Positions 45,882 to 58,353 of a stretch of DNA of 64,000 bases are shown piece after piece. How positions within the stretch are numbered: position 1 is the stretch's first letter; each line of letters opens with the position of its first letter. The notes beneath the pieces are model-generated. The model searched no databases. It saw nothing but the letters and a program-made list of their open reading frames with translations, and was not told the DNA's origin. The position numbers and the translations under genes are program-made. This stretch comes from Acidimicrobiales bacterium (GTDB lineage: Bacteria; Actinomycetota; Acidimicrobiia; Acidimicrobiales; Bog-793), in NCBI GenBank assembly GCA_050015255.1, contig JBEKBT010000002.1, positions 13,545 to 77,544 of the forward strand. Direction: 5' to 3'.

Positions 45882-46717
45882 GCGACACCGCTCCTTTCAC
45901 CGTCATCGGGCGGTTTCCCAGCGGTCTCGGCGTGCGCAGCGGACCGTTCCTGACCAGGCCGTTCGCTGCCCGAGTCCCCACCGGGCTCGGCGTTCGCACC
46001 AGGCCCCTCGGCCAAGGGCTCGACGAGCTCGGGCCCTTCCTCGCGTGCGTCGTTGACCCGGGTCGACACCAGGAACGCCTCCAGAGCCGAGGGTGGAGCG
46101 GGACGGATCAGGCGGTCGAGCTCGCCGGATGAGAGCGGGTCGGGGGAAAGCCATTCCTCGAGGTCTTCTTCGGTGATCAGCACCGGCATGCGGTCATGGA
46201 CAGGGCCGACGACGTCGTTCGCGTCGGTGGTGAGGATCGTGCAGGTCCGCAGCGGTGGCGCGGACTGATCGTGGCGAGGCCGCCACTGGTCCCAGAGGCC
46301 GCCCAGCAGGAGCAACCCTGAGCCTGGCGCCGTGAAGCACCAGGGCTGCTTGCGACGAACCGGATCGCTTCGTGAAGCCGGGGCCCACTCAAAGAAGGCG
46401 TCCGCAGGAACGACGCAGCGTTGTTTTTCGATCGGGCCCCGGAACATGGGCTTGTCGCGGACGGTCTCCGCCTTCGCATTGAAAGCGCGTCCCCCGATCG
46501 AGGGATCCTTCGCCCACCAGGGGACGAGGCCCCAACGGAAGGCCGAGAGGCGTCTGTGCCCAGGCTCGGGGCGCGGCTCGGTCACGGCGAGCACCGTCGC
46601 CTGTGGTGCGACGTTCCAGCGCGGGAGAGAGAGCTCGGGGGGCACGTCCACCTCGTCCACCTCGAGCAGCCGGGCGATCTCCCTGACGGGGCGGCTGGCG
46701 ACGAAACGACCACACAT
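45869..46717 (-). CDS. SOS response-associated peptidase (SRAP/YedK family)
   Basis: 282 aa. MCGRF N-terminal catalytic Cys2, RWNVAPQ, FNAKAETV, FFEW. The 3' end overlaps the dxs 3' end by 13 nt. Confidence 0.9.
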   Translation of the reverse strand: MCGRFVASRPVREIARLLEVDEVDVPPELSLPRWNVAPQATVLAVTEPRPEPGHRRLSAFRWGLVPWWAKDPSIGGRAFNAKAETVRDKPMFRGPIEKQRCVVPADAFFEWAPASRSDPVRRKQPWCFTAPGSGLLLLGGLWDQWRPRHDQSAPPLRTCTILTTDANDVVGPVHDRMPVLITEEDLEEWLSPDPLSSGELDRLIRPAPPSALEAFLVSTRVNDAREEGPELVEPLAEGPGANAEPGGDSGSERPGQERSAAHAETAGKPPDDGERSGVAQRF

Positions 46718-46777
46718 CGGCTCGGACGCTATCGGCCCGACGATACGGCCGCCGCCTGGCGGCGGGAGTTTGCAGCC

Positions 46778-47680
46778 TCACCCGAGAGCGTGAGAGACGG
46801 GGTCGACCGCGCAGGCCTCGGCGACGTCCTCCGCACAGGGCTCGCATTCCATCTCCAGAGTCGTGTGGGCGACGTGGAAGCGTTCTGCGAGTGAGCTTTT
46901 CACCCGCTCCCCGATGACTTGTGCCTCTTCGAGGGTCGGATGCCCATCGAGCACGACGTGGGCCGAGAGCGCCCTGAAGTCGCTCGAGAGGCTCCAGCAG
47001 TGGAGGTCGTGGACGGCGGTCACTCCCGGGACGGCCGAGACGGCCGAAGCGAGGGCTGCCACGTCGAGGTCGGGTGGGGTCGACTCGAGCAGCACGTCCA
47101 GGCTCGCCCGAACGAGCCGCCAGGCCTCGGCGCCGATGAGCAGCGTGATGAGCAGTGCCACGGCCGGGTCGATCGCCTCGAAACGTCCCGTCGTGAGGAT
47201 CACCGTCCCCGCCACGACCACGCCGAGGGCGGCACCGGCATCACCGGTGAAATGCAGGGCCACGGCCCGGAAGTTGAGGTCGCGCGTGTGCTCTCGCAGA
47301 ACAAGGGCCGCGCCCGCGTTGCCGACGAGGCCGGCGGCGGCGAAGATCACCACGAGCCCGCCTTGGGTGTGGGCCGGGTGGGCGAGCCGGTAGGCAGCAA
47401 GCACGACCACGCCGAGGCCTACGAGAACGATCGCAGTCGCGTTCGCGAGCGCAGCGATGATCGTCGCCCGGTGGTACCCGAACGACCGCGCCGCTGTCGC
47501 AGGTCTGAGGGCGAGCCGGGTGGCGACGAGGGCGAGCCCCAGGGCGGCGGCATCTGCCAGGTCGTGGCCCGCGGTCGCCACGAGACCGGTCGAATGGGCG
47601 AACGCCCCTCCGGCGACCTCGACTGCCACCAGGACAAGGTCGACGATGAGAGCCAGCACAAGCCGGCGCGATCGCGACAT
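46778..47680 (-). CDS. cation diffusion facilitator family transporter
   Basis: Track ORF 46778..47761; likely start is ATG 47680 (MSRSRRLVLALIVDLVLVAVEVAGG...). HDLADAAALGLALVA, FGYHRATIIAALANA, and a C-terminal domain with VHDLHCWSL. Confidence 0.9.
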   Translation of the reverse strand: MSRSRRLVLALIVDLVLVAVEVAGGAFAHSTGLVATAGHDLADAAALGLALVATRLALRPATAARSFGYHRATIIAALANATAIVLVGLGVVVLAAYRLAHPAHTQGGLVVIFAAAGLVGNAGAALVLREHTRDLNFRAVALHFTGDAGAALGVVVAGTVILTTGRFEAIDPAVALLITLLIGAEAWRLVRASLDVLLESTPPDLDVAALASAVSAVPGVTAVHDLHCWSLSSDFRALSAHVVLDGHPTLEEAQVIGERVKSSLAERFHVAHTTLEMECEPCAEDVAEACAVDPVSHALG

Positions 47681-47688
47681 CGGACGGC

Positions 47689-48528
47689 TCAGCCGGTCGG
47701 CCCCTCGGCGATGAGCGAGCGGACGAGCGGTAGGTCGTCCGGGTGGGTGAGCCCGATGCAACGGCTGTTCGAGGGGACGACTCGGATACGGGCCCGCCCT
47801 TCAGCCACGGCCTTGCCGACGACCTCGGGCAGGAGGAGCTCGGGCGGCTTGCCCTCCTCGTGTGGGGCGGTGTCGGGATCGAACGCGTCGAGCCCGTCAT
47901 CGATCTCATCGAGCATCGATTCCGAGAAACCCCAGAGGTTCATGCTCACTTGCTCTTCCCCGCTCATGTGCTGCGTGCTTCCGGCGCCCCCCGCGATCGG
48001 GGAGCCTTCGAAGGTCCCGTCACCAAGGCGCCGCACCTTTCTTTCCACGATGCGATTCAGGTAGTCGTCGGCCTCGATCTGACAAAGCCCACGGGTGACG
48101 GTGTCGTCGGTGATGACCGTGTCCTTGAGGTGGTAGCCGACGAGTACGTGCTCGCCCGGGTTGCCCTTGCGGAGCTGATCTGCGAGCGTCGCCATCGCCT
48201 GCTTGCCGTAGAGGTCGTCCGCGTTGGCGACGCCGAAGGGCCCGTCGACGAAGGGCCGGGCGGACTCCACCGCTTGCGCGGTGCCTGCGATCGGTCCTTG
48301 GACGACAGGCACGACGGGCAGATCGGCCGGCCAGGAGGACCTTACATGGCTGAGCAGCTCGTCTTGGATCTCCTCGCGTACGATGAGGATGACGCCGTCG
48401 AAACCGGCGGCGAGGGCGTCGCGGGCCGTGTAGTCCATGAGCGTCTCGCCCTCCGGCCCGACAGGGACGAGCTGTTTCAGACCGCCGAAGCGGCGACCGA
48501 AGCCTGCTGCGAGCACGACGAGCTGCAT
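47689..48528 (-). CDS. sugar-phosphate nucleotidyltransferase family protein
   Basis: 279 aa. MQLVVLAAGFGRRFGGLKQL (the G-x-G-t-R-x NTP-transferase loop). The substrate cannot be called. Confidence 0.8.
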   Translation of the reverse strand: MQLVVLAAGFGRRFGGLKQLVPVGPEGETLMDYTARDALAAGFDGVILIVREEIQDELLSHVRSSWPADLPVVPVVQGPIAGTAQAVESARPFVDGPFGVANADDLYGKQAMATLADQLRKGNPGEHVLVGYHLKDTVITDDTVTRGLCQIEADDYLNRIVERKVRRLGDGTFEGSPIAGGAGSTQHMSGEEQVSMNLWGFSESMLDEIDDGLDAFDPDTAPHEEGKPPELLLPEVVGKAVAEGRARIRVVPSNSRCIGLTHPDDLPLVRSLIAEGPTG

Positions 48529-48600
48529 GATTGAAGCCTACGACCTCTTAACATCGGTGTGGGTCGACAAGCCCGAGAGACACGCGAGAGGAGGCGGTCG

Positions 48601-49014
48601 GTGCAGGACGATTCAACGAGGACAGCTGCGACTCCTCCTGGGGCGGGGCCAGCGGTCCCCGCGGCGGTCGATGTGTCCACCAGGTCCTCTGGCGATCCGA
48701 TGGATGAAGCCGAGCGCAATCGGCGCAAGGAAGCGCTCGATGATCTGCTCGATCTCATGCGCCCTGCCGTCCAGGCCGACGGGGGGGACCTCGCCGTCGT
48801 CGAGGTCGACTACGACACCGGAGTCGTCGAAGTGCAACTTCAGGGTGCCTGCGGCTCTTGCGCCATCTCCGCGGTGACATTGCAGGGAGGCGTCGAGCGC
48901 CTCTTGAAAGAGCGCCTGCCTTGGATCACCGAGGTCAGAGGCGGCGTCGACGAGTCAGTTGATCCCTTTGAGAGCGCCGCCATGGGCCGCGGGGGTTATA
49001 TGCCTCGCTGGTGA
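48601..49014 (+). CDS. NifU C-terminal domain (Nfu-type) Fe-S scaffold protein
   Basis: Track ORF 48559..49014. GTG 48601 lies 6 nt after AGGAGG. LLDLMRPAVQADGGDLAVVEVDYDTGVVEVQLQGACGSCAISAVTLQGGVERLL contains the CxxC Nfu motif. Confidence 0.8.
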   Translation: MQDDSTRTAATPPGAGPAVPAAVDVSTRSSGDPMDEAERNRRKEALDDLLDLMRPAVQADGGDLAVVEVDYDTGVVEVQLQGACGSCAISAVTLQGGVERLLKERLPWITEVRGGVDESVDPFESAAMGRGGYMPRW

Positions 49015-49105
49015 GGACCCAAGCCGGCGAGCCGCTCACCAGCGACCCGTCAGCAGCGAGGCGTCAGCCCGCGCTGGTGAAGGTCCAAGCCGGCGCCACG
49101 CTCAG
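49006..49105. repeat. imperfect direct duplication (~34 nt copies, 66-nt period) bridging two convergent stop codons
   Basis: cgctggTGAggacccaagccggcgagccgctcac (49006-49039) versus cgctggtgaaggtccaagccggcgccacgcTCAg (49072-49105), about 28/34 identical. Copy 1 holds the Nfu stop. Copy 2 holds the complement of the AKR stop. Confidence 0.8.
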
Positions 49106-50151
49106 CCGGCGGCACGTGTCTCGGGCGGCCGCCGGCGCCGCCAGGCCTGGGTAACCGATTCGCTCTGCCACCCGGCATCGGCGGGATTGATCGTGACCCC
49201 CGGCGGGACGATCTCGTCGAGACGGTCGAGGGTGGCGTCGTCCAAGGTGACCTCCGAGCCTGAGAGCAGGTCCTCTAGCTGGTCCATCGTCCTCGGCCCG
49301 ATGATGGCGGCGGTCACGGCCGGATGCGTGACCACAAAGGCCAGGGCGAGGTGTCTGAGCGGCACCCCGGCTTCGTCGGCCACGGCTTCGAGCTTTTCGA
49401 CGAGGTCCAACTTCTGCTGGTTCGCGGGCAGGCTCGGATCGAAACGCTGCGGGATCCGCGACGCACGTCCCGTGGTCATGTCGACCTCCTTGCCGTGCCG
49501 GTACTTGCCGGTCAGCCAACCGCCTGCGAGCGGGCTCCAGGCGATGACGCCCATGCCGTAGCGTTCGCAGACCGGCAGCACTCCTGCTTCGATCCCGCGG
49601 GCGAATAGCGAGTACGGCGGCTGCTCGCACCGGAATCGCTCGAGGGAGCGCCTCTCGGCCGCCCAGTGCGCCTCGACGATCAGCTCGGCTGGGAACGTCG
49701 AGCAACCGATGGCGCGGACCTTGCCCTCGCGGACGAGGTCGGTCAGCACCGACAAGGTCTCTTCTATGTCCGTACGGGGATCAGGGCGGTGGATCTGGTA
49801 CAGGTCGATCCGGTCGGTGCCGAGTCGCCGCAAGCTCTGCTCGACCTCATAGCGGATCCAGCGACGCGAGTTGCCTGAGCGGTTGTGGCCGGGGCCCATG
49901 TTGCTGTGGACCTTCGTGGCGAGCACGACGTCGTCGCGCCGTCCCTTCAAGGCCTTGCCGACGATCTCCTCGGACTCGCCGGCGGAGTACACGTCTGCTG
50001 TGTCTATGAAGTTGATGCCCGCATCGAGCGCGGCGTGCACGATGCGCACCCCCTCATCGTGGTCCGGGTTGCCCCATTGGCCGAGCATCATGGCGCCGAG
50101 GCAGTAGGGACTTACCTCGATGCCGGTTCCTCCGAGTGTTCGATAGCGCAT
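49102..50151 (-). CDS. aldo/keto reductase
   Basis: Track ORF 49102..50160; ATG 50151 gives MRYRTLGGTGIEVSPYCLGAMMLG. DTADVYSAGESEEIVGKAL, and IIGPRTMDQLEDLL near the C-terminus. Confidence 0.9.
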   Translation of the reverse strand: MRYRTLGGTGIEVSPYCLGAMMLGQWGNPDHDEGVRIVHAALDAGINFIDTADVYSAGESEEIVGKALKGRRDDVVLATKVHSNMGPGHNRSGNSRRWIRYEVEQSLRRLGTDRIDLYQIHRPDPRTDIEETLSVLTDLVREGKVRAIGCSTFPAELIVEAHWAAERRSLERFRCEQPPYSLFARGIEAGVLPVCERYGMGVIAWSPLAGGWLTGKYRHGKEVDMTTGRASRIPQRFDPSLPANQQKLDLVEKLEAVADEAGVPLRHLALAFVVTHPAVTAAIIGPRTMDQLEDLLSGSEVTLDDATLDRLDEIVPPGVTINPADAGWQSESVTQAWRRRRPPETRAAG

Positions 50152-50161
50152 GGCAGCCAAC

Positions 50162-51073
50162 TTAGGGTCCTGACGCGTGCCTCGGTGACACGGCGAAGTA
50201 GTCCTCCGTCCCTGTGACGTCGAACCCGCAGCTCAGATAGAGGCCGAGGGCGCTGTCGTTGGTGCACGAGACTTCGAGCCCCACCCTGGTCAGGCCTTCG
50301 GCGACGAGGTCCCGGGAGAGACCTGACAGCACCTGTCGGCCGATCCCGCGGCCCTGGAACTGCGGCGAGACCGCGAACCCGTAGATGTCTGCCGCGTCGT
50401 CGCTGCGTTCGACACGAACCGTCCCGACCAGCTCGTCTGAACGCTCGATGACGAGGGTCCCCGGGAAATGCTCGACGAGCGCCTCTATGTCGTCGGTCTT
50501 CAGTTGCTCGACGGGGAGGCCGAAGGCCTCCCCCAGGCATGCGACGACGAAGGCGACGTCGCCCCGCTCGGCCTGGCGCACCTTGACGAGCGGGTCGGGA
50601 ACGAAAGCGGCAGGTTCGCGCCGCAGCACCATGCGGTGCTCGGAATGCTCGAGCTCACCCCCGACCGACTGGGCAAAGGCTGTCCCGGCTGCGTAGAGCC
50701 GGTCCACGACCAAGAGTGCCTGCGGCGCGCCCCGGTTGTCCACCTCGGCGATCGCGGCCTCGAACAGCCGGGAGAAGACGCCCTGGCGACGGTGGGCGGG
50801 ATGGACCATCCCGCAGATCTCGAGCTGGTCCGACCGGAAGCCGTAGAGGCCGAGAAAACCGACGAGGCCACCGGGCCCGACCCACAAGAAGTCGTTGACC
50901 TGTTCGGGCGGTCTTGTCTGAAGGGTTCGTCGCTCGAGCTTGAGACGCCCACCGTCCGCTGCGATGCAGGTCGAGGCAAGCTTGTCGATCTCGCGAAGAT
51001 GCTCCGGCGAGAGCCCCGGCTCCGCCAGGAGCTGCCCTGGAGGCTTTCTTCGCTCGTCGCCGGGGGGAGCCAC
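50162..51073 (-). CDS. tandem-GNAT N-acetyltransferase (MshD-like architecture)
   Basis: 303 aa. Two acetyl-CoA motifs: HPAHRRQGVFSRLFEAA and VSPQFQGRGIGRQVLSGL. The identity as mycothiol synthase is not established. Confidence 0.8.
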   Translation of the reverse strand: MAPPGDERRKPPGQLLAEPGLSPEHLREIDKLASTCIAADGGRLKLERRTLQTRPPEQVNDFLWVGPGGLVGFLGLYGFRSDQLEICGMVHPAHRRQGVFSRLFEAAIAEVDNRGAPQALLVVDRLYAAGTAFAQSVGGELEHSEHRMVLRREPAAFVPDPLVKVRQAERGDVAFVVACLGEAFGLPVEQLKTDDIEALVEHFPGTLVIERSDELVGTVRVERSDDAADIYGFAVSPQFQGRGIGRQVLSGLSRDLVAEGLTRVGLEVSCTNDSALGLYLSCGFDVTGTEDYFAVSPRHASGP

Positions 51074-51145
51074 CTGGGGGAGGTTAGCCCGCCGGGGTCC
51101 TGGCCGAGAGTCCGCGGAGACCCTGCGCCTGGGCCTGAGCCGGCG

Positions 51146-52882
51146 TCAATGAGCCGTGCCGAGCTGCACCGCCTTGACGATGAGCAGGAGCACGGCCGCG
51201 ACCAGGTAGAGGCGGAGGATCCACATCGCCGAGGTGCGCCCACGCGACCAGACGGGTCGCTCGAGGAGGGCGAGCGGTGGCATCCGCCAGGTCTCGCGCC
51301 GTACAGGGTGCTGGGAGGCAGCGGCCGCGGCAAGGCGGGCGGTGGCCTGGCGACGAGCGCGCTGGGCCGGCAGGACCGACCAGAATCCCACACCCAAGAA
51401 CCCTGCCGCGATGATGGCACCCAGGACCAGGGCGAACGTGACGACCTGAAGACTCGGGAAGACCGTCGTCGCCATCAGTATCAGAGAAAGGGCCAGCAGC
51501 ACGGCCACGATGAAGCCGGCCAGCACGTTCAGCCACGGGCGGTTGACCCAGGGCCCGAGGACTTCCTTGTCGTTGCAGAGCAAGAGCAAGAACACCGTCG
51601 CACTGGGCAGAAGCACCCCCGCCAGAGCTTGCACCGAAGTCGTGATCAGCCCCAACGGCGCCCGCGGTATCAGCACGATTGCCGCCGCGCAGATCACCAG
51701 CGAGCTGAACAGGATGTAGAACTGCTTCGCCTCGGCGAAGCTTCGGTGGAGAGAATGGTGGAGCCCGAACACGTCACCGAAGGCGTACGAGGTGGACAAG
51801 GTCACGGCGGCGGCTCCGATTATCGAGGCGTTGAGCAGCACGAGCGCGAACAGCGGCCCCGTGCCGTGCCCGACGACGTGCTCGAGAGCGCGGGCGACCT
51901 GCTCCGCGTTCACGAAGTGACCGGCGAAGGCGGTGCCCCGGAAGGCGAAGGCCGGGGTGACGACGAGCGCCGTGGCCGCGATCACTACGACGAGGGAGCC
52001 GATGACGGTGTCGGCACGCTCGTAGTTGATCCAGCGAGGCGTGATCCGCTTGTCGACGATGTTGGACTGCTGGAAGAAAAGCTGCCAGGGCGCCACTGTC
52101 GTTCCGACGATGGCGATGATCAGGAGCACAGCCGTCGACGACATACCGCCCTGGGCGCCCGGTACCAGGAAGCCGTGCAGTACAGGGCCGGCGTGGGGGT
52201 GGACCAGGATCACGAGCGGGATCACGAGGAAGTTCATCGCCACGAAGATGAACATGAAGCGTTCCCAGCGGCGGAAGCTGCCCGAGGCGGTTATGGCGAT
52301 CAGGCCGATCGCTGCGATCGGGACCGAGATGTAGGGGGAGATGCCGAAGTAGCCGAGGGCGAGGCCCACGCCGATGAACTCGGTGACGATCGTGAGGAAG
52401 TTCAAGATGAACAGGTCGCCGACGGAGAATGCCCCCCAGAACTTTCCGAATCGCTCGTTGATCAGCCTGGCATGGCCGACGCCTGTCACCGCTCCGAGGC
52501 GCACGACCATCTCCTGGTTGACGATGAGGACAGGGATGAGCAGGGGCAGGGTCCACAGCAGGCTGAGGCCGAAGTTCTGCCCGGCCTGGGCGTATGTGGA
52601 GACGCCCCCGGCGTCGTTGTCGCCCACCATCACGATGAGGCCCGGCCCGATGATGGCGAGCAGCGTGAGGAGCTTTTTCCCCCAGGACCGCCGGGCAGCG
52701 AGGTCGTGCTCGCGGATCGTTCCGAAAGCCCCCTGGATGTCGCCCACGTGCGCGCTGTCGAGGACGGCGCTGGGCGCGTCGAAGTGTCCTTCGGGCTCGG
52801 TTTCGTCGCCGAGGAGGGTGTCGTTCACCTCCTCCTCGTCGCCTGGAAGCAGCTTTTCGACCATGGTGACCTCTCGCGCCAT
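51146..52882 (-). CDS. Nramp/SLC11 family transporter with NRMT-type (Mg2+-like) site substitutions and extra C-terminal helices
   Basis: Track ORF 51146..52930; start is ATG 52882 or 52864. LLAIIGPGLIVMVGDNDAGGVSTYAQAG (TM1), IVNQEMVVRLG, IVGTTVAPWQLFFQQS (TM6). The canonical DPGN and AxxMPH motifs are replaced. Confidence 0.85.
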   Translation of the reverse strand: MAREVTMVEKLLPGDEEEVNDTLLGDETEPEGHFDAPSAVLDSAHVGDIQGAFGTIREHDLAARRSWGKKLLTLLAIIGPGLIVMVGDNDAGGVSTYAQAGQNFGLSLLWTLPLLIPVLIVNQEMVVRLGAVTGVGHARLINERFGKFWGAFSVGDLFILNFLTIVTEFIGVGLALGYFGISPYISVPIAAIGLIAITASGSFRRWERFMFIFVAMNFLVIPLVILVHPHAGPVLHGFLVPGAQGGMSSTAVLLIIAIVGTTVAPWQLFFQQSNIVDKRITPRWINYERADTVIGSLVVVIAATALVVTPAFAFRGTAFAGHFVNAEQVARALEHVVGHGTGPLFALVLLNASIIGAAAVTLSTSYAFGDVFGLHHSLHRSFAEAKQFYILFSSLVICAAAIVLIPRAPLGLITTSVQALAGVLLPSATVFLLLLCNDKEVLGPWVNRPWLNVLAGFIVAVLLALSLILMATTVFPSLQVVTFALVLGAIIAAGFLGVGFWSVLPAQRARRQATARLAAAAASQHPVRRETWRMPPLALLERPVWSRGRTSAMWILRLYLVAAVLLLIVKAVQLGTAH

Positions 52883-53228
52883 CGTTGGCGTAGTGGGTGT
52901 GCGTGGGCGTGATTGGTTGCGCACGCACACCAGAGGTCAAGCAGGCCTCAGCGGAGCAGTCGCTCCTCCTTGGTTGCGCACACGTGAAGTTGGTCCGGTA
53001 ACCAACCGTCGGTACTCAGGGTTGCTCCGTTTCCTGACCCATCGTCAACCTGCCTTTGAGCGAGTGGCGCCGGCGGGTACCGGCTTCAGCCCGGCGATGA
53101 CACCGGGTACACTGCGCCCACCGTCTCCGGAGAAGGCGTGGCTGCTTGCGGGCACAATCCTAGCCGTCTGAGCTCACTTCCGGTCCACTTGCCGGAGGTA
53201 TCCCGGCCCAGCGGGCGAGCCGGCGCTC
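52883..53228 (-). promoter_or_regulatory. long structured 5' leader / intercistronic region upstream of the Nramp homolog (candidate riboswitch)
   Basis: 346 nt without a convincing ORF between two same-strand genes. Perfect 10-bp stem GGUGUGCGUG/CACGCACACC (52896-52931). Duplicated 12-mer GUGCGCAACCAA (52913-52924, 52970-52981). GGAGC-GACU-GCUCC hairpin next to AAGGAGG. Confidence 0.35.
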
Positions 53229-54515
53229 TTACTCGTCGGAGGTGGTCATCCCGAAGTCGCGTCGCCACCCAGTCGGCAGGAGAAGCTCGAGCACGTCGTC
53301 GACGGTGACGACACCGATCATGTGGTGCTCATCGTCGATGACGGGCGCGGCGGCGAGGTTGAAGTCCGACATTCTCCGGACGATGGAGTGCAGGTCGGCG
53401 TCGGGTCTCACCGCCTGAGGGTCGAGGTCGGCCACGTCACCGATGCGCGCCCCCGACGGGCTCTTCAGGAGACGGACGACCGAGGCCGTGCCGGTGAGCC
53501 GGCCCTCCTCGTCCGTGGTGTAGATGACTCCGAGCGCCTCGGGTGCCACCGGGCTTCGGCGGATCTCCTCGAGCGCGTCCGAGACGATGGTGTCGCCGTG
53601 CAGGGAGAGGAATTCGGGGCTCATGAGCCCGCCCGCGGTCTCGGGGTTGTAGCTGAGCAGGGCCCGGACCTTGACCTGGTCCGGCTGGGGCAACGCCTCG
53701 AGGACCGCGAGCCGGCGGTCCTGCTCGAGGTCGGCGATCAGGTCGGCTGCATCGTCTGGTGCCATCGTCGCCAGCAGCCGGGCCGCTTCCTTGTCCGAGC
53801 GCGTGCTCAAGAACTCGAGCTGATGGCCCGTGTCCAGCTCCTCGAAGACGTCCGCCTCGAGCTCGAGGTCCTGACCGACGGCATTGATGATCTCCTCGCC
53901 CTCCTCGTGCGAGGCCGCCTCGACGAGGTCGGCGATCTGGGCGGGGTGGAGGCGGGCGAGCTTGCGGTAGGGGATGCGGAGCATGGCCGTCGGCACGTGG
54001 GCGACGAACGGCTGGATGCTCTCCCAGTCCACGATGGCCTTGGCCGGTATGCGCTTGGCGAGCATGCGCGGGAGCAGCCTGCGCAGGACCGGCCGACTCG
54101 ACGGGTCGACTCCGATGACTTCCAGGGTGCCGTCGACGGCGGCCAGCTCGATCTCGTTCGCCCGGATGAGCCGTGCGCCGACGATGTTGATCAGATGCCT
54201 CGCCGACAGGTCCCTTGCCAAGAGCAGCTCGCCCGGTCGCCGCTCGAAACGGGCCAGATTGAGGGTCTCGCCCTGGAGCTGGACGGAGCCGGGGCTGACG
54301 GTCCCGATGAGCGACATCGGCACGAAGAGCTGCCGGCGGCCGATCGTCGCGACGATCCCGCTCACGGGGGGATGTGCCTGTTCGCCAGGACGCGCGATCA
54401 GGTCCTCGACCCGGCCGATGCGTTCCCCGTCGCCACCGAGCAGCGGGCTGCGGACGATGTCGGAAAGGTGGATGATGTCGGTTGCCATCAGGAGGAGGCC
54501 CAGCGCGATCGGCAC
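53229..54515 (-). CDS. soluble MgtE-N domain + CBS-pair protein with PRC-barrel-like N-terminus (no membrane domain)
   Basis: 428 aa. N-terminal IHLSDIVRSPLLGGDGERIGRVEDLI (PRC-like), an MgtE_N-like helical region (LARLHPAQIADLVEAASHEEGEEIINAV...AARLLATMAPDDAADLIADL), a CBS pair (...IGVVTVDDVLELL), then a stop. No TM helices. Confidence 0.85.
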   Translation of the reverse strand: MPIALGLLLMATDIIHLSDIVRSPLLGGDGERIGRVEDLIARPGEQAHPPVSGIVATIGRRQLFVPMSLIGTVSPGSVQLQGETLNLARFERRPGELLLARDLSARHLINIVGARLIRANEIELAAVDGTLEVIGVDPSSRPVLRRLLPRMLAKRIPAKAIVDWESIQPFVAHVPTAMLRIPYRKLARLHPAQIADLVEAASHEEGEEIINAVGQDLELEADVFEELDTGHQLEFLSTRSDKEAARLLATMAPDDAADLIADLEQDRRLAVLEALPQPDQVKVRALLSYNPETAGGLMSPEFLSLHGDTIVSDALEEIRRSPVAPEALGVIYTTDEEGRLTGTASVVRLLKSPSGARIGDVADLDPQAVRPDADLHSIVRRMSDFNLAAAPVIDDEHHMIGVVTVDDVLELLLPTGWRRDFGMTTSDE

Positions 54516-54633
54516 GCGGCGATCCGCACGGCTCCATAGTAGTGAGAACTTCGCCGGGCTGGAAGGGTTCCGGCGCTCGTCGAGGCGGGCGACCGCTTGC
54601 TTATGGGAGCGGTGCGGGAGAGGCTAGACGGCT

Positions 54634-55893
54634 ATGCCAGAGCCGTACCGGCCCCGCTGCCTGCGAATTGCGTACCTCGTCTACAGAGGCAATCCGCGCT
54701 GTGGCGGCCAGGGTGTCTACACGCGTCATCTGACGCGCGAGCTCACGGCGCTCGGGCACTCGGTGACGGTGTTCTCCGGGCCGCCCTATCCCGAGCTCGA
54801 GGAGCCGGTGGAGCTGGTCAAGGTCGCGAGCCTGGACCTTTACCGGGAGCCGGACCCGTTTCGTGTCCCGAAACTGCGCGAGTTCACCTCTCCGACCGAC
54901 GTCCTCGAGTTCGCGCTCATGTGCACGGCAGGCTTTCCCGAGCCGCTCACCTTCAGCCTGCGGGCGCGCCGCTTGCTCGCCGGGCGCCGCTCGGATTTCG
55001 ACCTCGTCCACGACAATCAGAGCCTCGGGCGGGGTGTCGCCGGCATGATGAAAGACGGCTGGCCGGTGCTCGCCACGATCCATCATCCCATCACTGTCGA
55101 TCGCGAGCTCGACCTCGCTCACGCGGACCGATGGCAGCGGCGCCTGACACTGCGGCGCTGGTACGGCTTTGTCGGGATGCAGGCGCGGGTGGCGCGCAAG
55201 ATCCAGCGCGTGGTGACCGTCTCCGAGTCGTCGCGGCGCGACATCGCCGATCAGCTCGGCGTCGAGCTCGAGCGCATTGCCGTCGTCCCCGTCGGCGTCG
55301 ACAGCTCGGTCTTCCGGCCGATGCCGGCTGTCGCGCGGGTGCCGGGCAGGATCATGACGACGGCGAGCTCCGACGTGCCGATGAAAGGGCTCGTCCCGCT
55401 TCTAGAGGCGCTCGCGAAGGTGCGCGCCGAGCGCGAGGACGCCCATCTGGTGGTCGTGGGACGGCTGCGAGACGGCAGCACGATCCCTGCCGCGCTGGAC
55501 CGGCTCGGCCTGGCGCGGGCGGTCCGTTTCGTCTCCGGGCTGAGCGACCAGGAGATCGTCGATCTCTACGCCGAGGCGGAGCTCGCCGTCGTGCCGTCGC
55601 TCTACGAAGGCTTCTCTCTGCCGGCGATCGAGGCGATGGCTTGCGGCGTGCCGCTCATCGCCACCACCGGCGGCGCCCTGCCCGAGGTGGCGGGCCCGAG
55701 CGGCGTGTCGGCGCTGCTCGTGCCACCCGACGATCCGGACGCGCTCGCCCGGGCGATCGGGGCGGTCCTCTCGGACGAGGTGCTCCGCCATCGCCTCGGC
55801 GACGCCGGCCGCAGGCGCGTCGCCGAGCGCTTCACCTGGCCGGTGACCGCCCGGGCCACCGCAGAGCAGTACCTCGAGCTTCTGGCGTGCTGA
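54634..55893 (+). CDS. glycosyltransferase family 4 protein
   Basis: 419 aa. RIAYLVYRGNPRCGGQGVYTRHLTRELTALGHSVTVFSG, and a C-terminal GT-B E-x7-E region (VVPSLYEGFSLPAIEAMACGVPLIAT). Confidence 0.9.
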   Translation: MPEPYRPRCLRIAYLVYRGNPRCGGQGVYTRHLTRELTALGHSVTVFSGPPYPELEEPVELVKVASLDLYREPDPFRVPKLREFTSPTDVLEFALMCTAGFPEPLTFSLRARRLLAGRRSDFDLVHDNQSLGRGVAGMMKDGWPVLATIHHPITVDRELDLAHADRWQRRLTLRRWYGFVGMQARVARKIQRVVTVSESSRRDIADQLGVELERIAVVPVGVDSSVFRPMPAVARVPGRIMTTASSDVPMKGLVPLLEALAKVRAEREDAHLVVVGRLRDGSTIPAALDRLGLARAVRFVSGLSDQEIVDLYAEAELAVVPSLYEGFSLPAIEAMACGVPLIATTGGALPEVAGPSGVSALLVPPDDPDALARAIGAVLSDEVLRHRLGDAGRRRVAERFTWPVTARATAEQYLELLAC

Positions 55894-56603
55894 CTGTCGC
55901 CTTCGGCCGTCTCGGCCTGCGCCCGGGCGAGCGCGTCCTCGACCTGGGCTGTGGCGCGGGCCGGCACGCTTGTGAGTGCCTGCGTCGCGGGGCGCTCGTC
56001 GTCGCCCTCGATTCCGACTCGGTCGAGGTCAAAGGCGTCACCGGGTTGATGGCAGCGATGATCGCGGCCGGAGAGGTTCCCGAGAGCGGGGCGGGGGTGG
56101 CGGTGAGAGGTGACGCGCTGGGGCTGCCGTTTCCTGACGGGGCTTTCGACAAGGTCATCTGTGCCGAGGTGCTCGAGCACCTGCCCGACGACTCCTCGGC
56201 CATGGCCGAGCTCGCCCGGGTGCTTCGTCCCGGAGGCCTGCTCGCCATCAGCGTGCCCCGCTACGGGCCCGAGCTCGTCAACTGGGCGCTCTCGGAGCGC
56301 TATCACACCGTCCCGGGCGGTCATGTGCGTATCTACCGGCGCCGCCAGCTGCTCGAGCGGTTCGACAAGGCAGGTCTGGAGCTCGTCGCGACCCATCACG
56401 CGCACGCCCTGCACAGCCCTTACTGGTGGCTGCGCTGCCTCGTGGGAGTGGACAACGACCGCTGCCTGGCCGTGCGCAGCTACCACCGTCTCCTGGTGTG
56501 GGACATAACGGCTCAGACGCCGCTGACGCGTGTCCCCGAGAAGATCCTCAACCCCTTGTTGGGCAAGAGCCTCGTCGTCTACCTGGTGCGCGCAGAGCGA
56601 TGA
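55887..56603 (+). CDS. class I SAM-dependent methyltransferase
   Basis: In frame within track ORF 54597..56603. GTG 55887 overlaps the GT4 stop. ERVLDLGCGAGRHA (motif I), VVALDSD, FDKVICAEVLEHL, LRPGGLLAISVP. Confidence 0.85.
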   Translation: MLTVAFGRLGLRPGERVLDLGCGAGRHACECLRRGALVVALDSDSVEVKGVTGLMAAMIAAGEVPESGAGVAVRGDALGLPFPDGAFDKVICAEVLEHLPDDSSAMAELARVLRPGGLLAISVPRYGPELVNWALSERYHTVPGGHVRIYRRRQLLERFDKAGLELVATHHAHALHSPYWWLRCLVGVDNDRCLAVRSYHRLLVWDITAQTPLTRVPEKILNPLLGKSLVVYLVRAER

Positions 56604-57775
56604 TGACGCCCCTCCGTCAGGTCGCCGGCGACCCGATCGCCAGGGCGCCGATCGCCGGGACGCCGATCGCCAGGGCGCCGATCGGCGACACGATCGAGTG
56701 GATCCGCGCCGTCCAGTTGAGAAACGGCATGATCCCGTGGTTTGCCGGTGGCCACGCCGACCCGTGGAACCACGTCGAGGCGGCCATGGCGCTCAGCGTG
56801 GGGGGTGCGGTGCGCGAGGCCGAGCGCGCCTTCGAGTGGCTGCAGGCGACCCAGCGCGCCGACGGGGCGTGGCACACCTACTACCTGGCGAGCGGCCAGG
56901 TCGAAGAGCCCCGCCTGGACACCAACGTCTCTGCCTACGTGGCGACGGGTGTGTGGCACCACTTCCTCGTCACGGGTGACTCCGGTTTCCTGGAGGATCT
57001 CTGGGAGCCGGTCGAGCGGGCCATGGGCTTTGTGATCGGCTGGCAGCGCCCTGGCGGGGAGCTGGTGTGGTCGGTCGAGCCTGACGGGACGCCGGGGAGC
57101 TACGGGCTGCTGACAGGCTCCGCCTCGGCGTACTTCAGCCTCCGGTGCGCCATCGCCTGCGCCTTGCAGCTCGGCCTCGAGCGCCCGGAGTGGGAGCTTG
57201 CCGCCGGCCGCCTGCGCCACGCCGTCGCCCACGGCTCGGGCGGGTTCGCGCCCAAGGACGAGTTCGCGATGGACTGGTACTACCCGGCGCTGGTGGGAGC
57301 CCTCGAGCCCGAGACGGCCGCAGGCCGCATCGACGAGCGGTGGTCCGACTTCGTGATCGGCGGGCGAGGGGTGCGCTGTGTCTCGCACCGCCCCTGGGTG
57401 ACCGCGGCGGAGACGGCCGAGTGCGCCATCGCCCTGGCGTCGATCGGGCGGCGCGACGAGGCGGTGGACCTGCTCGGTTGGGCACGCCAGCACCGCCTCC
57501 CGGACGGTTCTTACGTCACCGGCATGGTCTACCCGCAAGGCTCGAGCTATCCCCCGGGGGAGCGCTCGAGCTATACGGCAGCGGCGATCGTCCTCGCCGA
57601 GGACGCCTTGTCCGGGCTGAGCCCGGCCGCTCAGCTGTTCGTCGACGGGTCGCTTCCCCGGGGCCTCGATCTCGATCCGACCGACGCCCCCACCTCCCGC
57701 CTGAGCACTCGCAGGCTTCCTATGCCGGCCGAGGCTTCCTCCACGAACTCGCCCCCGCTGAGCGCGCGCTTGTAG
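56600..57775 (+). CDS. prenyltransferase / terpene-cyclase-fold (alpha/alpha toroid) protein
   Basis: In frame within track ORF 56426..57775. ATG 56600 overlaps the upstream stop (ATGA). QW-like repeats QLRNGMIPWF, QRADGAWHTYY, WQRPGGELVW, HRLPDGSYV. N-terminal PIARA/PIAGT pentapeptide repeats. Confidence 0.75.
   Translation: MMTPLRQVAGDPIARAPIAGTPIARAPIGDTIEWIRAVQLRNGMIPWFAGGHADPWNHVEAAMALSVGGAVREAERAFEWLQATQRADGAWHTYYLASGQVEEPRLDTNVSAYVATGVWHHFLVTGDSGFLEDLWEPVERAMGFVIGWQRPGGELVWSVEPDGTPGSYGLLTGSASAYFSLRCAIACALQLGLERPEWELAAGRLRHAVAHGSGGFAPKDEFAMDWYYPALVGALEPETAAGRIDERWSDFVIGGRGVRCVSHRPWVTAAETAECAIALASIGRRDEAVDLLGWARQHRLPDGSYVTGMVYPQGSSYPPGERSSYTAAAIVLAEDALSGLSPAAQLFVDGSLPRGLDLDPTDAPTSRLSTRRLPMPAEASSTNSPPLSARL
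56635..56694 (+). repeat. four tandem 15-nt units inside the prenyltransferase-fold gene (PIARA-PIAGT-PIARA-PIGDT)
   Basis: gatcgccagggcgcc / gatcgccgggacgcc / gatcgccagggcgcc / gatcggcgacacgat, read directly. Confidence 0.9.
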
Positions 57776-58353
57776 ATCTCAAAGGGGGGGCGCCCGCCGT
57801 CTCTGGGGTCAGGGAACACGTCGTGGATCGCAAGCCAGCCGCCCTCGGCGACGCGCGGGGCCCAGCCCCGGTAGTCAGCCCAGGCGGGCACTTCGCCGTG
57901 GCCTCCGTCGATGAACACCAAGCCTGCGGTGACGTTCCAGCGGGCGGCGATCGCCGGCGAGTCACCGACGACGGCGACCGCGAGGTCCTCCGCCCCGGCG
58001 GACTCGAGCGCCCTTCTCCAAAACGGCAGTGTGTCGATGCGGCCGGTCTCGCGGTCGAGGAGCGTTGCGTCATGATGCTCCCAGCCGGGCTGGTTCTCCT
58101 CGGAGCCGTGATGATGGTCGACGCTGAAGATCAGGGCCGGTGGCGCTCCGGCGTCCATCGCCTGGGCGGTCCCCGAGGCCAGGTACAGTGTCGACCGGCC
58201 GCAGTAGGCGCCGACCTCGACGATCGAGGAGAAACCAGCCATCACGGCGCGTCGGGCGACGGCGGCGAGGGCAAGGCCCTCCTCATCGGGCATGAAGCCC
58301 TTGGTGGCACGTGCCGCCGCCAGCAGCAGCTGTGGTCTCGACTGAGGGCTCAT
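57631..58353 (-). CDS. class I SAM-dependent methyltransferase (CmcI / O-methyltransferase-3-like)
   Basis: 240 aa. IVEVGAYCGRSTLYLA (motif I-like), LVFIDGGHG, WLAIHDVF. The 3' end overlaps the convergent gene by 145 nt. Confidence 0.8.
   Translation of the reverse strand: MSPQSRPQLLLAAARATKGFMPDEEGLALAAVARRAVMAGFSSIVEVGAYCGRSTLYLASGTAQAMDAGAPPALIFSVDHHHGSEENQPGWEHHDATLLDRETGRIDTLPFWRRALESAGAEDLAVAVVGDSPAIAARWNVTAGLVFIDGGHGEVPAWADYRGWAPRVAEGGWLAIHDVFPDPRDGGRPPFEIYKRALSGGEFVEEASAGIGSLRVLRREVGASVGSRSRPRGSDPSTNS

Follow-up and report, generated by a model that had tools for sequence, protein, structure and literature searches.

The locus described here lies on the minus strand of a 64,000-nucleotide stretch of DNA from an Acidimicrobiales bacterium (GenBank assembly GCA_050015255.1, contig JBEKBT010000002.1), which as a whole is called the window below, and it is best read, at a probability of about 0.55, as an uptake carrier of the NRMT type together with an MgtE-like soluble partner that would throttle the influx through it, plus a leader inserted between the two genes as an additional layer of control. 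Two open reading frames (ORFs) were under study, ORF A at 51146-52930 (594 amino acids (aa) as the maximal model) and, upstream of it, ORF B at 53229-54515 (428 aa as the maximal model). The GC content of the window is 0.66-0.73, and the closest database proteins to both ORFs are labelled Acidimicrobiales bacterium. The positions of all features are collected in Table 1.

Judged by its sequence relationships, ORF A is an SLC11 permease of the NRMT clade, nearer to NRMT than to MntH, NRAT or the eukaryotic Nramp proteins, as an earlier note on this DNA had correctly proposed. The Pfam family Nramp (PF01566, LeuT-type fold) is matched with E 3.1e-77 over 355 of its 357 profile positions, and the best relative among all solved structures searched is EleNRMT (7qia, E 7.2e-64, ~33% identity over 403 residues), so that the homology is not a matter of chance. 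The other solved Nramps, including the plant aluminium transporter NRAT, score at 7e-21 to 1e-8 and MntH at ~1e-12, while the NCBIfam MntH model reaches 107 bits, far below its cut-off of 430; ORF A does not, by these scores, group with the Mn2+-transporting MntH proteins. The translation start is most likely the ATG at 52864 (572 aa), because a 100% identical database protein (P0121) has 572 aa and because the GAGAGGTCACC-ATG context, a Shine-Dalgarno (SD) sequence before ATG, is conserved, the relatives keeping GRGAGGT and then a start codon within ~10 nucleotides (nt). On the same two grounds the 594-aa maximal model, from the GTG at 52930, was replaced.

The residues of the metal site were mapped by a HMMER alignment of ORF A to the solved EleNRMT chain 7qia_A, in which GDNDAGG of transmembrane helix 1 (TM1) aligns with GNDAGG, and GTTVAPW of TM6 with GTTIAPW, the Trp of the latter being W229. 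Both motifs had been picked out in the earlier note, with TTVAPW exactly placed and the end of GDNDAGG set at 52621 instead of 52624, and the alignment puts the D-A-G-G and T-x-x-A residues inside the metal site, not outside it. In TM1, the Asp is kept and Asn is replaced by Gly; in TM6, Ala is replaced by Thr and Met by Ala. The window carrier is like EleNRMT (PDB 7QIA; Ramanadane et al. 2022, PMC8806188) in the Asp, Gly, Thr, Ala and Gln of the site and in the Trp after the TM6 motif, and all five positions, as well as the Trp, are invariant in 68/68 homologs, including an Eggerthellaceae protein. In EleNRMT, D55, Q379 and T224 matter for transport, with Q379A impairing it, T224 is specifically required for Mg2+, and the double change T224A/G58N brings the site closer to that of Nramp in its behaviour; the substrates of EleNRMT are Mg2+ and Mn2+ but not Ca2+, and their transport is not coupled to H+ (PMC8806188). 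From this analogy we infer that Mg2+ is the physiological substrate of ORF A.

ORF B most likely starts at the ATG at 54488 (419 aa) rather than at the GTG at 54515, because most of its homologs have 419 aa, and the 428-aa maximal model was replaced accordingly. Pfam finds in it an MgtE_N domain (E 7.5e-20) and a pair of CBS domains (E 2.7e-14), and no membrane helix is predicted, the maximal 19-residue Kyte-Doolittle hydropathy being 1.22, which bears out the membrane-less MgtE_N/CBS protein described earlier from the letters of the sequence. The MgtE pore, with its five helices and the Mg1 site D432, is not in ORF B, which ends 16 residues after the CBS pair, and TIGR00400 is matched over profile positions 26-251 of 450 only (108.6 versus a cut-off of 232.75). 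The AlphaFold2 (AF2) model of ORF B, with a predicted local distance difference test score (pLDDT) of 82.8, matches MgtE cytosolic-domain structures by Foldseek. The tail that follows has the consensus LPxGWRR(D/R)FG, of which LPxxWRR is kept across Actinomycetota and Chloroflexota homologs. As to the PRC-barrel-like domain that the earlier note had placed before MgtE_N and CBS, the Pfam match to PRC (PF05239) is weak in ORF B itself (E 0.0017, 18.8 bits, under the cut-off of 21.2), but 42/60 family members are matched, with E 7e-8 at best. The AF2 model of residues 1-185 (pLDDT 83.4, predicted TM-score 0.79) has as its best Foldseek match the archaeal PRC-barrel pair CdpB1/CdpB2 (8qzo, E 2e-5, TM-score ~0.5), with reaction-centre H subunits and further PRC-barrel proteins next in rank. 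The N-terminal region is found in 1494 cluster representatives at E <= 0.001, of which the full-length ones have ~410-460 aa.

Sensing of Mg2+ by ORF B at the interface of MgtE_N and the CBS pair is plausible, because the ligands of the MgtE sites Mg4, Mg6 and Mg7 are retained. With the sites defined after Maruyama et al. (PMC5882242) and the positions mapped by gap-free sequence alignment, Mg4 (D91/D247) corresponds to D245/D398 of ORF B, Mg6 (D95) to D249 and Mg7 (E59) to D213, and the acidic ligands of the three sites are kept in 67-68 of 68 homologs. A profile of 60 ORF B homologs matches the cytosolic domain of Thermus MgtE with E 1.8e-37 (ORF B residues 212-403; TtMgtE 58-252). ORF B has thus in common with Thermus thermophilus MgtE (PDB 2YVY/2YVX) the MgtE_N and CBS-pair fold together with these acidic ligands, and differs from it by the missing pore, plug helix and ATP contacts and by the additional PRC-like region at the N-terminus.

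The linkage of the two genes was assessed by a scan at one genome per GTDB species, which gave 80 loci with a long-form NRMT, 4 of them with too little upstream sequence and 76 assessable, from Acidimicrobiales, Solirubrobacterales/Thermoleophilia, Streptosporangiaceae, Pseudonocardiaceae, Mycobacterium, Mycolicibacterium, Nocardia, Chloroflexota, Dormibacteraeota and Acidobacteriota. A homolog of ORF B stands upstream of the carrier gene on the same strand in 72/76 of these, so that the conserved linkage, on which the earlier note had made its proposal depend, extends across phyla. The gap from B to A varies from an overlap of 4-8 nt, where the stop codon of B runs into the start codon of A (six loci: L054, L056, L061, L068, L073, L075), up to ~440 nt, and is 364 nt in the window. 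The close relatives retain the entire neighbourhood, and in L091 and L092 the pair is intact although the surrounding genes are rearranged. The Eggerthellaceae NRMT, which is 91% identical to the solved EleNRMT construct, likewise has a 450-aa PRC (weak), MgtE_N and CBS gene 4 nt upstream. As regards the two-gene unit proposed for the window, the adjacency therefore stands, but a tight operon does not, the 364-nt spacer containing a promoter-like box and a long leader.

The first ~60 nt of the spacer past the stop of B are unalignable, and the next ~290 nt are conserved among the relatives whose transporters are 75-94% identical, with blocks persisting down to ~70% transporter protein identity. 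This leader is preceded by a -10 hexamer of the TANNNT type, fixed in position in 33 full-length leaders and varying among the leaders as TAGGAT, TAAGAT, TACGAT, TAGCAT, TAATAT and TAGGCT, which suggests a promoter; a scan for sigma-70 consensus promoters and intrinsic terminators gave nothing useful. Metagenomes searched with a degenerate pattern of the leader core yielded 113 stretches, and 80 of these were examined with a leader profile. It recognised 40, of which 39 stand immediately before an NRMT gene and one at a contig end; the 40 unrecognised ones had no NRMT, in line with the few tens of chance matches that had been roughly estimated beforehand. Altogether, 45 distinct leaders were available, in two main clades. 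Rfam 15 (including M-box, Mg_sensor and yybP-ykoY) was searched over nt 46000-58000 with a limit of E <= 1 and within the spacer with a limit of E <= 10, and neither in the spacer nor ahead of B was an M-box or any other catalogued RNA family matched; against the leader, the Rfam covariance models gave chance-level scores only (STnc390, IRES_L-myc and mir-938, E 0.2-2).

The structural evidence for a leader fold is moderate, because the sequences are related and the structure was derived from them. The window leader has a folding z-score of -2.2 versus shuffles, and the consensus folds calculated per clade agree in the topology of the 5' domain, with 10 and 7 pairs, respectively, changed on both sides. 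In the 22 window-like leaders, 96.8% of the cells of the 5' domain are paired, compared with 22-43% in slid controls, and five of its pairs are double-changed versus 2.1 +/- 0.9 in shuffles (0/500). Its CCC loop is invariant, as is a GGG just 3' of the domain. Further downstream, a 3' segment GGYGUGCGYG may pair either upstream or downstream, the latter option extending into a helix over the ribosome-binding site (RBS). A column-wise helix scan of a MAFFT alignment of both clades was confounded by register shifts and GC-rich repeats, and a 5'-terminal helix GCCCG:UGGGU was discarded because it lies probably upstream of the transcription start. Between the 5' domain and the RBS, a frame opening with CUG is free of stops in 45/45 leaders over 18-28 codons, its indels are whole codons, and its stop is retained ~85-92 nt before the transporter start, as UGA or, in 3 and in 1 of the leaders, as UAA and UAG; the remaining two frames meet early stops in most sequences. 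A nine-codon mini-frame (53016-53042, minus strand; ATG GGT CAG GAA ACG GAG CAA CCC TGA) overlaps the GGAG/CUG core as well, and it is present only in the window-like clade, the ATG being absent from the second one.

Table 1. Features of the carrier gene, the partner gene and the spacer between them (positions in the window; aa numbering of the 572-aa and 419-aa proteins).
Feature	Positions	Strand	Basis or details
Gene for NRMT-clade Nramp/SLC11 transporter, 572 aa	51146..52864	-	Pfam, PDB relatives, identical protein P0121
C-terminal extension of carrier	51146..51364	-	extra helix, Arg-rich loop, final hydrophobic helix; hydropathy segments 442-500, 544-572
Conserved Arg-rich loop motif TWRMPPLALLERPVWSRGR	51236-51292	-	consensus WrMPpLaLL.rp.wS.gr
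Q412 codon (Q434 in 594-aa numbering)	51629..51631	-	aligns with EleNRMT Q379, helix 10
TM6 metal-site motif T-T-V-A-P-W	52085..52102	-	T255, A258 = EleNRMT T224, A227; Trp also in EleNRMT
TM1 metal-site motif G-D-N-D-A-G-G	52604..52624	-	D84, G87 = EleNRMT D55, G58
Conserved motif of cytoplasmic N-terminal extension, SAVLDSAHVGDIQGAFGTIR	52712..52771	-	consensus aVLD.AH.GDI.GA.GtI, 67 long-form homologs
Conserved leader (~285 nt, 5' untranslated region) of the NRMT gene	52865..53150	-	alignments, metagenome profile matches
Predicted RBS-sequestering hairpin	52867..52939	-	pairs TGACCTCT (52932-52939) with AGAGGTCA (52867-52874)
Same hairpin, second paired segment	52922-52931 : 52896-52905	-	GGTGTGCGTG : CACGCACACC
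Alternative partner of RBS hairpin segment	52976-52986	-	CACGTGTGCGC
Candidate upstream ORF	52948..53019	-	CUG (invariant) 5-6 nt after an invariant GGAG; 23 codons (LSTDGWLPDQLHVCATKEERLLR), then TGA
5' structured domain of leader (predicted)	53029..53147	-	closing helix, one hairpin, stem bearing two hairpins
Promoter-like -10 hexamer TAGGAT (TANNNT type)	53157..53162	-	position fixed in 33 full-length leaders
Gene for soluble PRC-like, MgtE_N and CBS-pair protein, 419 aa	53229..54488	-	Pfam, homologs, AF2
Conserved C-terminal tail LPTGWRRDFGM	53247..53279	-	in place of MgtE plug helix
CBS pair, ~aa 288-405	53274..53627	-	D398, E401 = MgtE D247, D250; N377 replaces D226
MgtE_N domain, aa 180-282	53643..53951	-	D213, D245, D249 = MgtE E59, D91, D95
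N-terminal beta-barrel region, PRC-barrel-like, ~aa 1-130	54099..54488	-	AF2, Foldseek

In the proposed mechanism, the carrier would behave like EleNRMT and import hydrated Mg2+, probably along with Mn2+, with no coupling to protons, and the partner, probably a dimer formed through its CBS domains, would bind cytoplasmic Mg2+ at the acidic sites between MgtE_N and CBS. Under Mg2+-replete conditions it would dock on the cytoplasmic face of the carrier and throttle the influx, a gate for which the lack of H+ coupling in EleNRMT gives the rationale. The contacts might be made by the WRR tail of the partner and by the lineage-specific extensions of the carrier, which is ~135 residues longer than EleNRMT. 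Its N-terminal extension motif is absent from EleNRMT and from the Eggerthellaceae NRMT, and so is the C-terminal extension, which is common to 67 long-form relatives and whose Arg-rich loop (WRMPPLALLERPxWSRGR in the window carrier) would be cytoplasmic by the positive-inside rule; the two extensions and the WRR tail are thus natural candidates for a docking surface. In this Acidimicrobiales lineage, a second layer of control would be placed between the genes as a separate promoter and a ~285-nt leader, in which the structured 5' domain, the short frame and the alternative helices near the RBS might tune the synthesis of the transporter.

The pairing itself is not new, and the central regulatory idea of the earlier note, which had taken the pair as functionally uncharacterised, is a published hypothesis. 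Shin et al. 2014 (PLoS Genet, PMC4072509), who named NrmT, found that most nrmT genes adjoin a gene for an MgtE fragment, put forward, as speculation, that the fragment serves "cytoplasmic feedback regulation" or has chaperone activity, and performed one co-expression test. The partner is unmentioned in the 2022 structural paper on EleNRMT (PMC8806188), and in the literature searched no later work on the MgtE-like partner was found. NRMTs constitute a fourth class of bacterial Mg2+ importers, and, because they are not proton-coupled, it may be asked how cells avoid uncontrolled influx through them, a control for which the MgtE-like partner has been the obvious candidate since 2014. The comparison presented here sharpens the experiment, in that the partner is nearly universal in the clade, often translationally coupled, and holds three MgtE Mg2+ sites without the ATP site, and its tail and the cytoplasmic extensions of the carrier are natural targets for mutagenesis.

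A number of observations count against a carrier gated by its partner and tuned by its leader. Co-expression of the Acidobacterium capsulatum pair gave no further Mg2+ rescue, its carrier rescued an Mn2+ defect, and the C. acetobutylicum NrmT complemented alone, that is, NrmT functions without the partner (PMC4072509); EleNRMT likewise transports in proteoliposomes without it (PMC8806188). The inference of Mg2+ as the substrate is weakened by the carriage of Mn2+ by EleNRMT and by the A. capsulatum relative having acted as a Mn2+ importer (PMC4072509). Four of the 76 loci (L027, L043, L047, L069) have no adjacent partner, and in four or five (L009, L017, L045 and L076 among them) another gene is inserted within the pair. 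In ORF B, Mg5 is half lost (N377 stands in the place of D226, and the acidic D250 has its equivalent in E401), and in the MgtE alignment the plug-helix sites Mg2/Mg3 (E258, D259) have no counterpart. The MgtE ATP contacts Y170, R187, D188, N203 and F227 (PMC5529423, where F227A abolishes ATP binding of MgtE) are, as mapped by sequence alignment only, V321, V338, R339, D354 and L378 in ORF B, and in its family four of the positions are variable and that of F227 is Leu; MgtE-style ATP sensing is therefore not supported, and of the "Mg2+/ATP-sensing module" spoken of earlier only the Mg2+ half is plausible. As to the leader, the upstream frame starts with a non-AUG codon (CUG) and shows no third-position excess, the substitutions being even across codon positions, the covariance model of clade I barely recognises clade II (10-15 bits, filters off), and the RBS pairing is not significantly above shuffles (0.83 versus 0.72), a comparison that does not discriminate in GC-rich RNA, which leaves the RBS-sequestering hairpin a weak prediction. 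Selection on the peptide of the upstream frame was rejected for lack of the third-position bias; its translation itself may still matter.

These last points are also those on which the plainest account of the spacer would be built, according to which it is a promoter with an ordinary untranslated region, conserved through kinship, and the frame and helices are by-products of a GC-rich sequence. Most of the leaders come from two clades and the covariation is modest, which suits such an account, and we regard it as a possibility to be taken seriously, though short of even odds. It is at variance with the sharp change from the unalignable ~60 nt to the conserved ~290 nt at protein divergences of 12-30%, with invariant blocks that persist between the clades and stems that hold while loops vary, and with a frame that is open throughout, with whole-codon indels and substitutions of stop for stop. 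A more ambitious proposal, to be held as tentative and rather doubtful in its full form, is that the leader would be an undescribed regulatory RNA, in which the 5' domain controls translation of the CUG frame and thereby selects helices that hide or expose the RBS; the partner would then form a detachable gate, dependent on Mg2+, for an SLC11 uniporter. The leader would in that case be the actinobacterial equivalent of the M-box or of mgtA/mgtL, and together with the partner it would put two independent feedback layers on one carrier. Should the leader prove regulatory, it would be a new RNA element of Mg2+ homeostasis, found in Actinomycetota of soil and peat that are as yet uncultured.

A system devoted chiefly to manganese or some other transition metal, with the carrier importing Mn2+ and the MgtE-like protein answering to it, appears unlikely, even though the NrmT of A. 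capsulatum, which likewise adjoins an MgtE fragment and lacks an M-box, gave a weak rescue of the Mg2+ defect and rescued the Mn2+ defect as noted (PMC4072509), EleNRMT transports Mn2+ too (PMC8806188), and the window locus has no M-box either. The invariance of the EleNRMT signature D/G/T/A/Q, with T224 being specifically needed for Mg2+, points the other way, as does the difficulty of accumulating a scarce ion without H+ coupling (PMC8806188, discussion), and the acidic sites retained in the partner are those that bind Mg2+ in MgtE (PMC5882242).

A carrier gated by its partner is also preferred to the second suggestion of Shin et al. (PMC4072509), namely that the partner is a cytoplasmic metal chaperone or buffer, which accepts the ions released by the carrier and does not gate it. 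The several acidic Mg2+ sites retained in ORF B and the absence of the pore-coupling sites of MgtE (plug helix, Mg2, Mg3) would be in keeping with this, and yet we consider it quite improbable. Cytoplasmic Mg2+ is millimolar and needs no chaperone, the overlap of stop and start codons seen in several lineages speaks for a stoichiometric co-production, as for a complex, and the conserved tail of the partner and the cytoplasmic extensions of the carrier suggest docking. That the two genes are mere neighbours, transcribed and regulated separately, with the partner acting elsewhere through its PRC-barrel domain, is very improbable, since a spacer with its own promoter-like box, some genomes with inserted genes or no nearby partner, and an N-terminus nearest to an archaeal PRC-barrel pair annotated as a heterodimeric complex are outweighed by a same-strand, same-order adjacency that spans phyla, survives rearrangement and goes as far as overlapping codons.

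Compared with the pairs of Shin et al. (the C. acetobutylicum Ca_c0685 operon and A. capsulatum Acp2976/Acp2977), the order is the same as in the window, with the MgtE-cytoplasmic homolog upstream of the carrier. The clostridial nrmT operons, however, have an M-box in front, as only a subset of the family does, and the MgtE fragment split in two genes, whereas the window has no M-box and a single 419-aa protein, which adds the PRC-like domain, and its unrelated leader is situated between the genes and not ahead of the pair. The M-box (ykoK) and the Salmonella mgtA leaders are long, precede Mg2+-uptake genes and form alternative helices, and the window leader would do likewise by prediction; it matches, in sequence or structure, no Rfam family, M-box and Mg_sensor included, and its upstream frame would start at CUG. 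The mgtA leader of Salmonella contains a short proline-rich reading frame, mgtL, the translation of which is used in the control of mgtA. The resemblance of the window leader to mgtA/mgtL is only a lead.

R1, a covariance model made from the 22 leaders of the window-like clade, found no further instance at E < 0.01 in the 80 species loci. Weak full-length matches lie just upstream of NRMT genes in two Acidimicrobiaceae loci, L027 (5656-5814, E 0.025) and L002 (5729-5871, E 0.05), of which L027 has no adjacent partner. Solirubrobacterales spacers (L022, from 5817 onward; L028, L029, L039) contain a different conserved sequence, with a TAGGCT-type box, GAAAGGAGG and then an ATG/GTG frame of ~19-22 codons (MDREQPRSTQPxAR...) in a canonical SD-ATG arrangement, out of frame with the transporter in 3/4. 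By blastn, 14 loci form a cluster, and a separate group of seven clusters too. Leaders that are long, differ between lineages and contain short frames may thus recur generally before NRMT carriers.

Besides these, several features of the partner and of the neighbourhood were noted. The partner in Eggerthellaceae (L093, 2644-3996) ends in a strongly hydrophobic segment, IIGAVLFLVLYTMALFQII, of hydropathy 2.46, and it is probably membrane-anchored, unlike the window protein, which is predicted to be fully soluble. A Streptosporangiaceae locus (L060, 2683-3870) has, shortly before the regular pair and on the opposite strand, a second, divergent copy of the partner gene (31% identity), and the gene inserted in L009 (3875-5458) is a 527-aa ORF with a signal-peptide-like start. 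Around the window pair, a two-domain GNAT acetyltransferase, an aldo/keto reductase, a NifU-like protein, a nucleotidyltransferase and a cation-diffusion-facilitator efflux protein are encoded downstream (46778-51073) and a divergently transcribed GT4 glycosyltransferase upstream of B (54634-55893), all conserved in the close relatives.

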